Made by a program: the position numbers and the translations under genes
Shown here: positions 26,887 to 45,834 of the stretch, in pieces
How positions within the stretch are numbered: position 1 is the first letter of the stretch
Layout of the letters: the number at the start of each line of letters is the position of its first letter
Notes under the pieces: model-generated
Seen by the model: only the letters and a program-made list of their open reading frames with translations
What the model was told of the DNA's origin: nothing
Database searches by the model: none
Assembly: GCF_048403405.1 (NCBI RefSeq)
Contig: NZ_CP183129.1
Source of the DNA: Escherichia coli
GTDB taxonomy: Bacteria > Pseudomonadota > Gammaproteobacteria > Enterobacterales > Enterobacteriaceae
Reading direction: 5' to 3' (one strand)
DNA: 64,000 bases

Positions 26887-27147
26887 TTACTGACGAGGAT
26901 GCTTCAATAACTTCTTTACATAATTGCGCAGCAGCTCCGTAGCGTCGTCAGGAATGCTGGCATCGGGCTTTACCTCGTACAGCGCCCCCTCTACCTGATC
27001 AATCAACCTTTGTTGGTCATTTTGCGCCATATTGCGAAGCATTGCAGTGACGATAATCTCCAAAGCTTCTACCTGCGCGCACAGTTCTTTCGACTCTTCT
27101 TCTTTTTGGGCAAGCTTAAATAACAACTCAGCAATGAGATTTTTCAT
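26887..27147 (-). CDS. iraP: Anti-adaptor protein IraP (stabilises RpoS under phosphate starvation)
   Basis: 86-aa [40 protein letters not shown]... matches IraP (YaiB). Confidence 0.93.
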
Positions 27148-27609
27148 GTCTGTATTTCCTTATCCAAAGTATGGAGAAGTTAACATTATGTTTCACAACT
27201 TCATAGTGTCTGGAAGTATTATTTTTATGACAAAGGAAATACTTTGCGCAAATATTTTTTGTTTGATTACCAGCGAAACGTTTCTCTTATTTTAATAATT
27301 ACCCACACAAAATATAGGCTTTTAATTATCAACCTTTATTATAAATAAAAGTTATGAAATATATTCTCTTCGTAAACTTATAATTAAGAGAAAAAAACTC
27401 ACTGCATGGCCATACAAGCCAGGAATAAATTAGCTTCCCGTTCATCATTTTTGTGATCTTGCGCACATCATTGAGATAACGCGCTTTCTTCACCAGTACG
27501 TTGCACGCTTTGTCAGCAGAAGATTGCAACATTCTGTCAGAAGGCCGCGAATCCCCCGTTTTGTCGTGGTAATGTATGCACTTTGTGTTAGACGGGATAG
27601 GTTTTTAAG

Positions 27610-37060: not shown

Positions 37061-37585
37061 TTGTCATCCCTCCTCAGGGACGTAATAAGTTGATCCATCA
37101 ATTATCAATGCATAGAAAACATATTATGTTTCGCGTTGACGATTATGCGGCGTTATAGAGGAATGGTTCAATTATTCTTTCCCCTAAGTCCGATTGCGGA
37201 CATATATAAAGCACGTGAACACACACACAGAAAGAAATAACAAAAACACAATATTTCAATACGTTAATGAAAGCGTTAATTTTAAAACATAGACCATGAA
37301 AATATAAAACAACTAAAACAGACAAATAATGTATCAATAAGCAATGAACTTTAAGTTATTCGCTTTTTGAAAACGTCACCAAATCCCCAAAAACAATAAT
37401 CTATGGCTATAAATAAAAATTAAAAATATTTTCAGTGAATATGAAATTATTGCTATTTCTTTTACAAAGATGTCCTGGCCTCTCTTCCATTCTCTTCTTG
37501 TCAACATCGCGACAACTTTCGTAAAACATCCCCACCCTGCTTCAGGTATACTATGCCCCTCGATTCCACAAACATCAGGCAGACC

Positions 37586-41051: not shown

Positions 41052-42014
41052 TTATTGCACGAAGCGCGAGGTCACGTACTGGCTGTAATCGTTCGCTACA
41101 GCCGGGACTTTGCCCTGCTCTTTCAAAAACTGCGCGGTGTCGATGATCGCTTTGTTCACCGATCCGGTCAGTTCTGCCGTTTGCTGCTGCGGCGTCAGAT
41201 AGGTATTCCCCTTCACCAGCCCCGGAACGTCACCTTCAGGCACGCCGCTTAACCGCGCCAGTTTGCTGATGTTTTCAGGCTGTTTCAGCCACGCGTCTGG
41301 GTTAGCAATGTACGGTTGCTGAGCATCGATGGCGCTTTTAGCGAACGCTTTCACGACCTCAGGATGTTTCTCGGCAAAATCTTTGCGCACTACCCAGACA
41401 TCCAGCGTCGGCGCGCCCCACTGCCCGACCTGTTCAGAATCGGTCAGCACCTTGCCGTCTTTTTCCAGGGCGTTAACCGCCGGTGCCCAGACATAAGCAC
41501 CATCAATGTCTCCCCGTTGCCATGCGGCGATAATCGCGGGTGGCTGCAGGTTCACTATCTCCACTTGTCCGGGTTTTATACCCCAGTGTTTCAGCGCCGC
41601 CAGCAGGCTGTAGTGGGTGGTGGAGATAAACGGTACGGCGATGCGTTTGCCAATGAGATCTTCCGGTTTGCTGATAGTTTTCTTTACCACCAGCGCTTCG
41701 GAGTTACCCAGTTTTGACGCCAGTAAGAAGACTTCAATCGGCACCTGTTGGCTGGCTGCCACCGCTAATGGGCTGGAACCGAGGTTACCGATTTGGACAT
41801 CGCCTGAAGCCAGCGCCCGCACGATGCTGGCTCCGCTGTCAAACTTACGCCAGTCCACCGTCGCCCCGCTCTCTTTAGCAAAGGTGTTATCAGCCTGAGC
41901 CACTTTCGCCGGTTCAGCGGAGGTTTGATAGGCCACGGTGACGTTCACCGCCTGTGCCTGAAAAGCGATGAATGCCAGTGCGGCAAGAAGTGTGTTACGC
42001 GATGAAATTGCCAT
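41052..42014 (-). CDS. tauA: Taurine ABC transporter periplasmic binding protein
   Basis: Matches TauA MAISSRNTLLAALAFIAFQAQAVNVTVAYQTSAEP...; start at the internal ATG (complement of 42012-42014), 320 aa. Confidence 0.94.
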   Translation of the reverse strand: MAISSRNTLLAALAFIAFQAQAVNVTVAYQTSAEPAKVAQADNTFAKESGATVDWRKFDSGASIVRALASGDVQIGNLGSSPLAVAASQQVPIEVFLLASKLGNSEALVVKKTISKPEDLIGKRIAVPFISTTHYSLLAALKHWGIKPGQVEIVNLQPPAIIAAWQRGDIDGAYVWAPAVNALEKDGKVLTDSEQVGQWGAPTLDVWVVRKDFAEKHPEVVKAFAKSAIDAQQPYIANPDAWLKQPENISKLARLSGVPEGDVPGLVKGNTYLTPQQQTAELTGSVNKAIIDTAQFLKEQGKVPAVANDYSQYVTSRFVQ

Positions 42015-42622
42015 GATTGTCTGCTCCCCTGTCTTGTTATAGGAGCAGTATTCAGGAATAAAAACATTCATTAAAAGAATTAGTCGTTATCGCACAGATG
42101 ATTTTATTCTTAGCAAAAAAGCGGCAAAGGAAAGATTAAATATGCAATTACACCCACTCTGACAATTCAGTAAGTTACTGCACTTCATTTTTATTAATGC
42201 ATAAACAAGCAGAACATAATGTCTTTTATTTTATTAACAGCAATACATATAATGAAATCATTATATTCACATTGCATATATAACTGTATCATTCTCAATC
42301 AACCACATAATACATTCACATAATGTATATAATCCATATTTGTGCCTAGAACATATTTTTAATATGTAATTAATTGACAAACTAAATCACATCTAAATAC
42401 AATATATAAAACAAAATAACTATACAAACCAAACACACAAACACTTAACATATGAACTACATAAAAGATTACGCAGTCGTATCCCCGTACCTGAAAGCCC
42501 CTTATTTTTCAGCTATCAGTAATTTTTAACACTTAAAAATTAGCATCTGTCTGTGCCAGAGATTACGTCTCTGCGGGCATCGTTGTGCTTGTAGTATAAT
42601 AAATAAAATGGAGTGTCATTAA

Positions 42623-43294
42623 GTGGATAAGGTTTTAGATTCAGCCATCCTTTCTTCGGCAAATAAAAGAAAGGGTATCCTTGCTATTGGCGCACATCCT
42701 GACGATATAGAATTGGGCTGTGGCGCGTCGCTTGCTCGTCTTGCGCAAAAAGGAATTTATATCGCAGCCGTGGTGATGACTACCGGCAACTCTGGCACAG
42801 ATGGAATAATCGATCGCCATGAAGAATCGCGCAACGCCCTAAAGATATTAGGGTGCCACCAAACTATTCATCTTAATTTTGCTGACACCCGCGCGCATTT
42901 GCAGCTCAATGATATGATTTCCGCCCTGGAAGACATCATTAAAAATCAAATTCCTTCTGATGTTGAAATCATGCGGGTATATACCATGCATGATGCCGAC
43001 CGCCATCAGGATCATCTTGCTGTTTATCAAGCTTCAATGGTTGCCTGCCGAACTATTCCACAAATTCTCGGCTACGAAACCCCAAGCACCTGGCTTTCAT
43101 TTATGCCTCAGGTTTTTGAATCCGTTAAAGAAGAATATTTCACAGTCAAACTTGCTGCATTAAAAAAACATAAAAGCCAGGAACGACGCGATTATATGCG
43201 TCATGATCGCCTGCGTGCAGTTGCACAATTTCGCGGGCAACAGGTCAATAGCGATCTGGGTGAAGGCTTTGTAATTCATAAAATGATTCTTTGA
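42623..43294 (+). CDS. yaiS: PIG-L / LmbE-family deacetylase YaiS
   Basis: ORF with the LmbE-type motif AIGAHPDDIELG. The only in-frame start before that motif is the GTG at 42623 (GGAG about 9 nt upstream); start uncertain. Confidence 0.8.
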   Translation: MDKVLDSAILSSANKRKGILAIGAHPDDIELGCGASLARLAQKGIYIAAVVMTTGNSGTDGIIDRHEESRNALKILGCHQTIHLNFADTRAHLQLNDMISALEDIIKNQIPSDVEIMRVYTMHDADRHQDHLAVYQASMVACRTIPQILGYETPSTWLSFMPQVFESVKEEYFTVKLAALKKHKSQERRDYMRHDRLRAVAQFRGQQVNSDLGEGFVIHKMIL

Positions 43295-43303
43295 GCAAAT
43301 TGC

Positions 43304-44500
43304 ATGAAAACCTGGATATTTATCTGTATGTCCATAGCAATGTTGCTATGGTTTTTAAGTACGCTAAAACGTAAACCCAGTCAAAAGAAAGGCTGTATTG
43401 ACGCCATTATACCTGCTTATAACGAAGGCCCGTGTCTGGCACAGTCACTGGATAATCTGCTGCGTAATCCTTATTTTTGCCGGGTAATTTGCGTAAACGA
43501 CGGCTCCACGGACAATACCGAAGCGGTCATGGCGGAAGTCAAACGCAAATGGGGCGACCGCTTTGTTGCCGTCACGCAAAAAAATACCGGTAAAGGTGGT
43601 GCGCTGATGAATGGCCTCAATTACGCCACCTGCGACCAGGTTTTTTTAAGTGATGCCGACACCTATGTTCCGCCCGATCAAGACGGAATGGGCTATATGC
43701 TTGCAGAAATAGAGCGCGGTGCTGATGCCGTAGGCGGCATTCCCTCTACTGCGTTGAAAGGCGCGGGTCTGTTACCGCACATCCGCGCGACCGTAAAGTT
43801 GCCGATGATTGTTATGAAGCGCACGCTACAGCAGCTCCTGGGCGGCGCACCGTTTATTATCAGCGGTGCCTGCGGGATGTTCCGTACTGATGTATTGCGT
43901 AAGTTCGGTTTCTCTGATCGTACTAAAGTCGAAGACCTTGATCTCACCTGGACATTGGTGGCAAACGGCTATCGTATTCGGCAGGCGAATCGCTGCATCG
44001 TATACCCACAGGAATGCAACAGCCCGCGTGAGGAATGGCGTCGCTGGCGGCGTTGGATTGTGGGCTACGCGGTCTGTATGCGCCTGCATAAAAGGCTTTT
44101 ATTTAGCCGCTTCGGTATCTTCAGTATATTTCCTATGCTGTTGGTTGTGCTTTATGGCGTTGGGATTTATCTCACTACCTGGTTTAATGAATTCATCACC
44201 ACCGGGCCGCATGGTGTGGTGTTGGCAATGTTTCCGCTTATCTGGGTCGGCGTAGTTTGTGTTATTGGTGCTTTTAGCGCCTGGTTTCATCGTTGCTGGT
44301 TGTTGGTGCCTTTAGCACCGCTTTCCGTTGTGTATGTATTATTAGCTTATGCCATCTGGATTATTTATGGACTTATTGCCTTTTTTACTGGACGCGAACC
44401 TCAGCGCGACAAACCCACCCGCTATTCCGCACTGGTGGAAGCGTCAACCTCTTATTCCCAACCTTCTGTCACAGGAACTGAAAAACTTTCTGAAGCTTAA
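43304..44500 (+). CDS. yaiP: Family 2 glycosyltransferase YaiP with C-terminal membrane segments
   Basis: 398-aa ORF with GT-A motifs (VICVNDGSTDNT, FLSDADTY) followed by several hydrophobic helices. Confidence 0.9.
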   Translation: MKTWIFICMSIAMLLWFLSTLKRKPSQKKGCIDAIIPAYNEGPCLAQSLDNLLRNPYFCRVICVNDGSTDNTEAVMAEVKRKWGDRFVAVTQKNTGKGGALMNGLNYATCDQVFLSDADTYVPPDQDGMGYMLAEIERGADAVGGIPSTALKGAGLLPHIRATVKLPMIVMKRTLQQLLGGAPFIISGACGMFRTDVLRKFGFSDRTKVEDLDLTWTLVANGYRIRQANRCIVYPQECNSPREEWRRWRRWIVGYAVCMRLHKRLLFSRFGIFSIFPMLLVVLYGVGIYLTTWFNEFITTGPHGVVLAMFPLIWVGVVCVIGAFSAWFHRCWLLVPLAPLSVVYVLLAYAIWIIYGLIAFFTGREPQRDKPTRYSALVEASTSYSQPSVTGTEKLSEA

Positions 44501-45059
44501 TGTTAAAGAGAAAAATATTCAGATTGCAGACCAGGTAATTATTGATGAAACTGCAGGTGAAGTTGTTATCGGCGCGAATACCCGTATTTGTCACGGTGCC
44601 GTTATTCAGGGTCCGGTAGTGATTGGCGCAAACTGCCTGATAGGTAATTATGCGTTTATTCGTCCTGGCACAATAATCAGCAATGGCGTAAAAATTGGCT
44701 TCGCCACCGAAATTAAAAATGCGGTTATTGAAGCGGAAGCAACGATTGGTCCGCAATGCTTTATTGCCGACTCGGTAGTTGCAAACCAGGCATATTTGGG
44801 CGCACAAGTACGAACCAGTAATCATCGTCTGGATGAACAGCCCGTGTCTGTTCGAACTCCCGAGGGAATTATCGCTACCGGATGCGATAAATTAGGTTGT
44901 TATATCGGGCAGCGTTCACGCCTTGGCGTACAAGTTATTATTTTGCCTGGGCGAATTATTTCCCCGAACACGCAACTTGGCCCGCGCGTGATTGTAGAAC
45001 GTAATTTACCTACCGGAACTTATTCACTCCGACAAGAACTTATCCGTACAGGAGATTAA
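44349..45059 (+). CDS. yaiX: Hexapeptide-repeat (left-handed beta-helix) acyltransferase-like protein YaiX, uninterrupted; start uncertain
   Basis: Repetitive [LIV]-G-x-x-x-x hexads (VVIGANTRICHGAVIQGPVVIGANCLIGNYAFIRPGTIISNGVKIG...). The ORF begins 150 bp inside yaiP with no ATG/GTG right after the yaiP stop, so the true start may be internal or non-canonical. I recall K-12 has this gene disrupted by IS2; no IS here. Confidence 0.7.
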   Translation: MPSGLFMDLLPFLLDANLSATNPPAIPHWWKRQPLIPNLLSQELKNFLKLNVKEKNIQIADQVIIDETAGEVVIGANTRICHGAVIQGPVVIGANCLIGNYAFIRPGTIISNGVKIGFATEIKNAVIEAEATIGPQCFIADSVVANQAYLGAQVRTSNHRLDEQPVSVRTPEGIIATGCDKLGCYIGQRSRLGVQVIILPGRIISPNTQLGPRVIVERNLPTGTYSLRQELIRTGD

Positions 45060-45060
45060 A

Positions 45061-45834
45061 ATGATAAAACGGACGTTATTAGCGGCGGCCATTTTTAGCG
45101 CATTACCCGCTTATGCCGGGTTAACTTCCATTACCGCGGGCTACGATTTTACCGATTATTCTGGCGATCATGGCAACCGTAATTTAGCGTATGCTGAACT
45201 GGTGGCGAAAGTTGAAAACGCAACGCTGCTTTTTAATCTTTCCCAGGGGCGTCGTGATTATGAAACTGAACATTTCAATGCCACTCGCGGTCAGGGTGCG
45301 GTCTGGTATAAATGTAATAACTGGCTGACAACCCGAACGGGTATTGCCTTTGCGGATAATACGCCGGTCTTTGCCCGCCAGGATTTTCGTCAGGATATTA
45401 ACCTGGCACTGTTGCCAAAAACGCTTTTCACGACCGGTTATCGCTACACTAAATATTACGATGATGTCGAAGTCGATGCCTGGCAAGGCGGCGTATCACT
45501 CTATACTGGCCCGGTGATCTCCAGCTACCGCTATACCCATTATGACTCCAGCGATGCAGGTGGTAGTTACAGCAATATGATTTCCGTGCGTCTGAATGAC
45601 CCGCGCGGCACTGGTTATACGCAACTATGGCTAAGCCGCGGAACAGGCGCTTACACCTATGACTGGACGCCAGAAACACGCTACGGCAGCATGAAGAGCG
45701 TCAGTTTGCAACGTATTCAACCGCTGACTGAGCAACTTAATCTCGGGCTGACGGCAGGTAAAGTGTGGTACGACACCCCAACTGATGATTATAACGGTCT
45801 GCAATTTGCAGCCCATCTGACCTGGAAATTCTGA
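45061..45834 (+). CDS. yaiO: Outer-membrane beta-barrel protein YaiO
   Basis: 257-aa ORF with signal peptide MIKRTLLAAAIFSALPAYA and a C-terminal aromatic residue (...LTWKF); starts 1 bp after the yaiX stop. Confidence 0.92.
   Translation: MIKRTLLAAAIFSALPAYAGLTSITAGYDFTDYSGDHGNRNLAYAELVAKVENATLLFNLSQGRRDYETEHFNATRGQGAVWYKCNNWLTTRTGIAFADNTPVFARQDFRQDINLALLPKTLFTTGYRYTKYYDDVEVDAWQGGVSLYTGPVISSYRYTHYDSSDAGGSYSNMISVRLNDPRGTGYTQLWLSRGTGAYTYDWTPETRYGSMKSVSLQRIQPLTEQLNLGLTAGKVWYDTPTDDYNGLQFAAHLTWKF

Follow-up and report, generated by a model that had tools for sequence, protein, structure and literature searches.

In the stretch of Escherichia coli DNA analysed here (the window, 64 kb in full length, from a strain other than K-12), the start codon of tauA, on the minus strand, ends at 42014, and the GTG start codon of yaiS, on the plus strand, lies at 42623. 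The spacer between these divergent genes is exactly 608 bp long (Table 1). Its GC content is 30.1%, and 26% in its core (42146-42535), against 51.4% for the whole window. The window's lowest-GC stretches of 200, 400 and 608 bp are all located inside the spacer; for 200 bp, GC falls to its lowest value, 20.5%, at 42224. AT content so far over the genome average is a general mark of xenogeneic DNA silenced by H-NS.

An earlier note, made from the letters alone, had described a strongly AT-rich divergent gap of about 600 bp and called it the longest non-coding stretch of the window. Both descriptions are correct. Among the annotated intergenic gaps of a near-identical strain, tauA/yaiS is the longest (608 bp, against 525 bp for ehaB/hemB), and it is likewise the longest ORF-free gap of the window at ORF cut-offs of 60 and 80 amino acids. 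The feature is real and has already been described for K-12, and the reading given in the note was essentially right, if incomplete; what it missed is that most of the spacer is part of a horizontally acquired replacement segment. Three other low-GC stretches were noticed in the window: the ehaB/hemB spacer (37074-37474, GC 0.29), the iraP/ddlA spacer (27081-27481, GC 0.305) and 3530-3870 (about 0.28-0.33), within a hypothetical gene at 2666-4123. They may be further targets of H-NS.

Table 1. Features of the tauA/yaiS spacer and the adjoining acquired segment, in window coordinates
Feature	Position	Strand	Remarks
Whole tauA/yaiS divergent spacer	42015..42622	.	608 bp, GC 30%
tauA 5' leader	42015..42040	-	start at A 42040; distance to ATG 26 nt
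tauA -10 hexamer AATACT	42047..42052	-	spacing to the 42040 start correct
Left junction of variable segment	42053	.	just upstream of tauA -10; end of the close match to O157-type E. coli and to other genera
Putative tauA -35 TTTAAT	42070..42075	-	weak, 3/6 matches, 17-bp spacer; read from sequence
Putative Cbl activator site	42108..42152	-	-68 to -112 from start
Counterpart of K-12 promoter island 383994_309	~42168..42469	.	PMC3661553 Table 1, 776-bp offset
Palindrome ATATAATGA-aa-TCATTATAT	42247..42266	.	perfect 9-bp arms; one TATAAT per strand
K-12-predicted tauA-direction "constitutive" promoter site	42271..42298	-	TTGAGA-16-TACAAT in K-12
Hydrophobic 30-codon ORF	42451..42359	-	open, conserved sequence in six alleles
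Distal promoter TTGACA-18-TACAAT	42374..42403	+	11/12 matches; predicted start near 42410
21-nt A/C-only tract acaaaccaaacacacaaacac	42424..42444	+	shuffle test
Upstream ORF, 25 codons	42452..42529	+	open in six alleles (25-27 codons)
AT-only inverted repeat TAATTTTTAA-cac-TTAAAAATTA	42520..42542	.	perfect 10-bp arms
Inverted repeat CAGAGA-ttacg-TCTCTG	42557..42573	.	read from sequence and allele alignment
Proximal yaiS promoter and translation start	42595..42625	+	TATAAT 42595-42600, GGAG 42610-42613, GTG 42623
Rest of acquired segment	42623..45925	+	yaiS, yaiP, hexapeptide acetyltransferase, yaiO

The acquired segment upstream of tauA

The variable segment extends over about 3.9 kb to a right junction at ~45925, about 95 bp upstream of frmR. 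Its four genes code, according to Pfam, for a PIG-L deacetylase (yaiS), a GT2 glycosyltransferase (yaiP), a hexapeptide acetyltransferase and an outer-membrane beta-barrel (YaiO), and their GC content is 0.48, against 0.57 for tauABCD. The spacer core is present in 4288 of 5426 complete E. coli genomes. The remaining 1138 (about 21%), O157:H7 included, carry a different tauA upstream region, and conclusions on regulation drawn from K-12 may for this reason not transfer to strains without the core. In O157:H7, close identity stops ~40 bp upstream of the tauA ATG and a response-regulator gene is located 302 bp away; the alternative segment of ~8 kb, which reaches to frmR, comprises this response regulator, a MASE1 kinase, a uhpC-like gene and an ABC transporter of the afu type. 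E. coli has two mutually exclusive segments between tauA and frmR, the 3.9-kb yaiS type and the ~8-kb O157:H7 type. Among 80 tauA loci, each from one genome per species, only that of E. whittamii also has yaiS and yaiP upstream (spacer of 607 bp, GC 0.31). Many other species (Citrobacter, Klebsiella, Enterobacter and their relatives) carry a divergent 630-nt response-regulator gene upstream of tauA, and spacers of this type are typically 230-340 bp long with GC of 0.41-0.51. Since the response-regulator arrangement is the one found in other genera, the O157 arrangement is ancestral and the yaiS segment a replacement.

IncFIB plasmids carry the same four genes as well, at ~77% nucleotide identity and next to genes for an integrase and a transposase. 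The upstream region of the plasmid copy has a GC content of 29%. Its homology to the chromosomal spacer was considered and rejected, as the local alignment score was the same as that of shuffles; TTGACA is nevertheless located about 230-250 bp upstream of the gene in both regions. The genes yaiS, yaiP, the acetyltransferase gene and yaiO (42623-45834) form a mobile module, which in its composition is reminiscent of synthase-dependent exopolysaccharide systems, for example pgaABCD. In the strain under study yaiS (42623-43294) is intact and codes for 223 amino acids, like the E. whittamii gene and the one on the plasmids, which are intact too; in K-12 MG1655 a Gln186-to-stop change shortens YaiS to 185 amino acids. 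An IS1 element is inserted in the spacer of some strains (98219, MSB1_1D), and in MSB1_1D it stands in place of yaiS and of the spacer portion next to this gene.

Six alleles of the spacer were aligned: the allele of the window, that of K-12, three from other E. coli strains and one from E. whittamii. Over the core, the allele here shares 80% identity with K-12 and 86% with E. whittamii, and K-12 and E. whittamii are 82.5% identical; the corresponding values for the tauA coding sequence are 96%, 91% and 91%. Divergence of the core between E. coli haplotypes, 20% and accompanied by indels, exceeds its divergence from E. whittamii. Variation is unevenly distributed, with ~6 variable columns in the 90 bp of 42365-42455 against ~30% variable columns in the flanks. 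The yaiS gene is 98.7% identical to K-12 and 91% identical to two strains that have a core 93-95% like the one here, and this disagreement between yaiS and core identities points to deep recombining haplotypes at the locus and to a recombinant allele in our strain. Further, yaiP (43385-44500) shows 94-99% identity when E. coli is compared with E. whittamii, and 97-99% over its first 300 bp; as the adjoining tauA is only ~91% identical, a recent exchange of the cassette between the two species is indicated.

Promoters and conserved sequences of the spacer

On the tauA side, the allele here is 98-99% identical to K-12 over the first ~130 bp of the spacer, 97-98% over ~140 bp and 97-100% in the leader up to the transcription start, which has been mapped in K-12. 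The sole plus-strand start that Cappable-seq detected in K-12 between 383338 and 388394 is 384430, in U00096.2 coordinates (PMC4782308 supplement). As yaiS occupies 383283..383840 in U00096.2 (Kim et al. 2012 supplement, PMC3415461) and 384059..384616 in NC_000913.3, the two coordinate systems differ by 776 bp, and the start falls 26 nt upstream of the tauA ATG, at 42040 of the window. The correctly spaced AATACT hexamer stands in front of it, and the tauA promoter that the earlier note had expected in the spacer is confirmed in this way. The -10 region AAATACTG is invariant in all 13 aligned Enterobacteriaceae sequences, which also have in common the tauA leader and the core of TTGCCGnTTTTTTnCTAA (~42108-42126). 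The weakness of the putative -35 hexamer is to be expected of an activator-dependent promoter. A 25-bp block at 42127-42151 (-87 to -111) is invariant across the six alleles. The conserved blocks at -68 to -111 presumably coincide with the Cbl footprint reported by van der Ploeg et al. 1997.

Judged by these traits, the first ~140 bp of the spacer is the conserved Cbl/CysB-dependent promoter of tauABCD, in which the exact Cbl site is placed tentatively. Its mapped start, weak -35 and conserved upstream activator block are those of Cbl/CysB-activated promoters (tauA, ssuE), but the tauA promoter part makes up no more than a quarter of the whole spacer. The activator region of the K-12 type (42053-42154) is 85% identical to E. 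whittamii and 42-62% identical to 75 other species, and the activator regions of other species compared are 69-93% identical to the O157 type. We therefore regard the K-12 tauA promoter as a strongly diverged, AT-enriched variant. The textbook promoter of K-12 adjoins foreign DNA from its -10 element outward.

In the direction of yaiS, the earlier note had named a TATAAT-like element close to the gene. This proximal element, together with the Shine-Dalgarno block, is kept in all six alleles and the whole block 42587-42639 (TATAAT, GGAG, GTG) is near-invariant in them, but the element has no usable -35, and the note overlooked the strongest candidate, the distal TTGACA-18-TACAAT. The latter is located 213 bp upstream of yaiS, with its hexamers at 42374-79 and 42398-403, and was proposed for yaiS in an RpoD genomic SELEX study (Shimada et al., PMC3946193). 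The sequence around it, 42368-42403, is the best-conserved block of the core, with one variable column in six alleles. The whole conserved stretch 42365-42455 carries the distal promoter, the A/C tract and CATATG. The leader at 42380-42457 is poor in G (C 22%, G 1.3%), and RNA made from the distal promoter would carry the 42424-42444 tract within a G-poor, unstructured leader. The close match to consensus and the conservation suggest that the distal element is likely a real promoter of the cassette; conservation of the block could also reflect something other than promoter function. A BLAST search of all E. coli genomes with the 92-nt conserved block matched 505 of them, a count that is affected by low-complexity masking and was discarded.

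In the K-12 list of Kim et al. 2012, the one yaiS-direction entry is a site with 2 reads that lies within tauA, and there is none in the spacer, which fits silencing. For the opposite direction, Shimada et al. propose TTGAGA-16-TACAAT as a promoter of tauA in K-12 (PMC3946193). Its -10 reads TGTAAT in E. whittamii and TGCAAT in the allele here, which thus lacks the crucial A; conservation of this site is absent.

Sequence motifs were compared with 500 dinucleotide shuffles of the spacer. The CA-rich tract reported in the earlier note is present, and an A/C-only run of its length, 21, was obtained in 0 of 500 shuffles and is thus beyond chance. The TATA/ATAT runs are there as well, at a frequency that composition itself provides (23 observed, 19.2 +/- 4.1 expected). 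The inverted repeat CAGAGA-ttacg-TCTCTG is found upstream of the proximal TATAAT as described, its centre ~42 bp ahead of the start that this element would give. It is identical in four of the six alleles and has CAGAGG in the other two; taken by itself, a 6-bp inverted repeat is not significant, as a GC-containing one occurs in ~10% of shuffles. Two perfect AT-rich inverted repeats, 42247-55/42258-66 and 42520-29/42533-42, are both beyond chance. The first is preserved in K-12 by a paired G>A / C>T change, and the second overlaps the stop codon of the 25-codon upstream ORF. A Fur box was considered at 42247-42266, where the arms fit the Fur consensus but the spacing, compared by eye, is one base short.

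H-NS binding and promoter-like sites

The spacer between yaiS and tauA of K-12 is known as promoter island 383994_309, one of 78 such islands, which was bound by H-NS in all ChIP studies compared and was classified as foreign-gene-associated by three predictors (Panyukov & Ozoline, PMC3661553 Table 1). Its counterpart in the window spans most of the AT-rich hypervariable core. Genomic SELEX has further shown binding of RpoD holoenzyme to the K-12 spacer and an in vitro H-NS site in it (PMC3946193), and a SELEX peak of RpoS (sigmaS) holoenzyme is located 28 bp upstream of the yaiS start in K-12 (PMC5493296), that is, near the proximal promoter block 42595-42625 after correction for the 776-bp offset. 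These published occupancies support the earlier note, which had recognized the composition of an H-NS-bound region; all occupancy and start-site data are from K-12, whose core is 80% identical to the allele here. The ROSE supplement contains no entry for the tauA/yaiS locus.

The note had also expected a curved region, and here its reading is not supported: AA/TT power at a periodicity of 10-11 bp, the usual sign of intrinsic curvature, is 0.55 in the spacer, against 0.68 +/- 0.29 in shuffles. Nor is the high-affinity H-NS motif (TCGATAAATT-like) enriched over composition, with one occurrence in the spacer and 1.6 expected. H-NS can, however, bind DNA that has neither a high-affinity motif nor phased A-tracts.

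Promoter islands (Shavkunov et al. 2009; Panyukov & Ozoline 2013, PMC3661553) were defined by the Ozoline laboratory as regions of at least 300 bp in which each 100-bp window has at least 8 start points predicted by PlatProm. The spacer, being the same locus, shares with this class its AT-richness and its dense promoter-like sites. Counted on both strands with a home-made -35/-10 matrix and a lenient cut-off, which is not the defining PlatProm scan, these sites reach 82 per kb, the highest density in the window and about six times its average of 14 per kb. This density is, however, fully explained by dinucleotide composition: 49 sites were observed and 49.1 +/- 6.3 are expected from dinucleotide shuffles, and a stricter scan gave 2 sites where 3.6 are expected. 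The promoter-island character would on this account be a product of AT-richness alone. In other respects the likeness to island 383994_309 is close, as acquired genes adjoin it, as is usual for promoter islands, and in K-12 H-NS and RNA polymerase are bound with little productive transcription. The allele here differs in being 80% identical and in having one of the two K-12-predicted promoters destroyed. The locus illustrates that a promoter island can be the mere composition of silenced AT-rich DNA, and that the same island can still hide one conserved, probably real, promoter.

A second class to which the spacer can be compared is the regulatory regions under xenogeneic silencing by H-NS (bgl, proU, LEE, SPI-1). 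Its GC content is 21 points below the genome average, it borders an acquired cassette of which plasmids carry a copy too, and H-NS occupancy has been published for K-12; on the other hand, we found no published derepression of the yaiS cassette, and no counter-silencer is known. Elevated sequence diversity is also shared with H-NS-bound upstream regions, for which the medians given by Higashi et al. are a diversity of 0.016 in intergenic regions and a dS of about 0.054-0.058 (PMC4720273). The divergence of 0.20 observed here, more than ten times their intergenic median, reflects deep recombining haplotypes.

Interpretation of the spacer

We consider it probable that the spacer is a composite of the native tauABCD promoter and the H-NS-bound front end of the acquired cassette. 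The first part, ~42015-42152, would be a weak sigma70 promoter that starts at 42040, has the -10 AATACT and a poor -35, and fires only when the LysR-type activators Cbl and CysB are bound just upstream, under sulfate starvation. The second part, ~42053-42622, which overlaps the first, would be the 5' end of the ~3.9-kb low-GC segment that displaced the ancestral ~8-kb segment for a two-component system and transporters in most E. coli. Its very AT-rich core may nucleate H-NS filaments, and by composition alone it would offer RNA polymerase many -10/-35-like sites, which would result in the behaviour of a promoter island. Polymerase would bind with little productive transcription, leaving the cassette silent in laboratory conditions. 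The conserved distal promoter, starting near 42410, could be freed once H-NS is displaced, and its G-poor, CA-rich, unstructured leader of 213 nt may expose untranslated transcripts to Rho as well. Read like this, the locus is one more member of a well-described class and raises no new question; the point of most remaining interest is the conserved distal promoter with its leader block.

Leaving aside two short promoters close to the genes, the ~400-bp core could instead be functionless, AT-drifted filler, to which H-NS and RNA polymerase would bind without consequence. Several results are in line with this: promoter-like sites are as frequent as in dinucleotide shuffles, the core has diverged by 20% with indels between E. 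coli haplotypes, the K-12-predicted promoter in the tauA direction is lost in our allele, no RNA structure was found, and no alignment could be made with the AT-rich DNA upstream of the plasmid copy. Drift alone, however, does not account for 42365-42455, in which an 11/12 promoter is kept nearly invariant across six alleles, another species included, between flanks with ~30% variable columns, nor for the 21-nt A/C-only run and the two long perfect palindromes, all beyond chance. We hold neutral filler to be unlikely.

The same conserved block permits a more elaborate reading, which we find distinctly doubtful, namely that its 90 bp form a dedicated leader switch of the mobile exopolysaccharide-like cassette yaiS-yaiP-acetyltransferase-yaiO. 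Such a switch would consist of the near-consensus distal promoter, the G-poor, CA-rich leader and the always-open upstream ORF of 25 codons; translation of this ORF would decide whether Rho and H-NS abort the transcript, and the hypervariable DNA around the block would be free to drift or diversify.

The core could also belong to tauA rather than to the control of yaiS, as an extended upstream regulatory region with more CysB sites or looping elements. CysB is reported to occupy several sites at the tau promoter (van der Ploeg et al. 1997), and a 12-bp imperfect inverted repeat flanks the region from -16 to -69. Yet in other Enterobacteriaceae, and in the 1138 of 5426 E. coli genomes without the core, tauA is expressed from spacers, mostly of 230-340 bp, that have no sequence in common with it, and the sequence past 42152 is hypervariable, which makes an extended tauA region highly improbable.

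The spacer was also searched for genes of its own, as the earlier note had left room for a small RNA or a small ORF in it. Three Rfam matches at a permissive E-value (4.6-9.6) were far under the gathering scores and were rejected. No intrinsic terminator was found in the spacer, and the putative 213-nt leader has a fold z-score of -1.25 relative to shuffles, with 0 compensatory pairs in six alleles; none of the marks by which a small RNA gene would be recognized (promoter plus terminator, conserved structure or a known family) was found. Two small ORFs are open in all six alleles, one of them, on the plus strand, beginning 42 nt downstream of the predicted distal start, behind the CA-rich leader, and the other, on the minus strand, being conserved in sequence as well. 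In neither is variation among the six alleles biased to third codon positions (14/8/8 variable sites over positions 1/2/3 in the plus-strand ORF, 5/2/1 in the minus-strand ORF), and the middle of the plus-strand ORF is frame-shifted in K-12. Neither peptide matched a named protein, and neither ORF is mentioned in the one small-protein survey consulted, so that coding-type variation and a recognised homologue are both missing. The leader ORF may be translated even so, with the sequence of its peptide being of no importance. That the spacer codes for an unannotated small RNA, or for a small protein from either ORF, is hardly credible on this evidence. Outside the spacer, YkiC, a small protein verified in K-12, is encoded antisense to the 3' end of the intact yaiS (43160-43279 of the window, minus strand), and an antisense Cappable-seq start inside K-12 yaiS, at U00096.2 383338 (+), is located downstream of ykiC.
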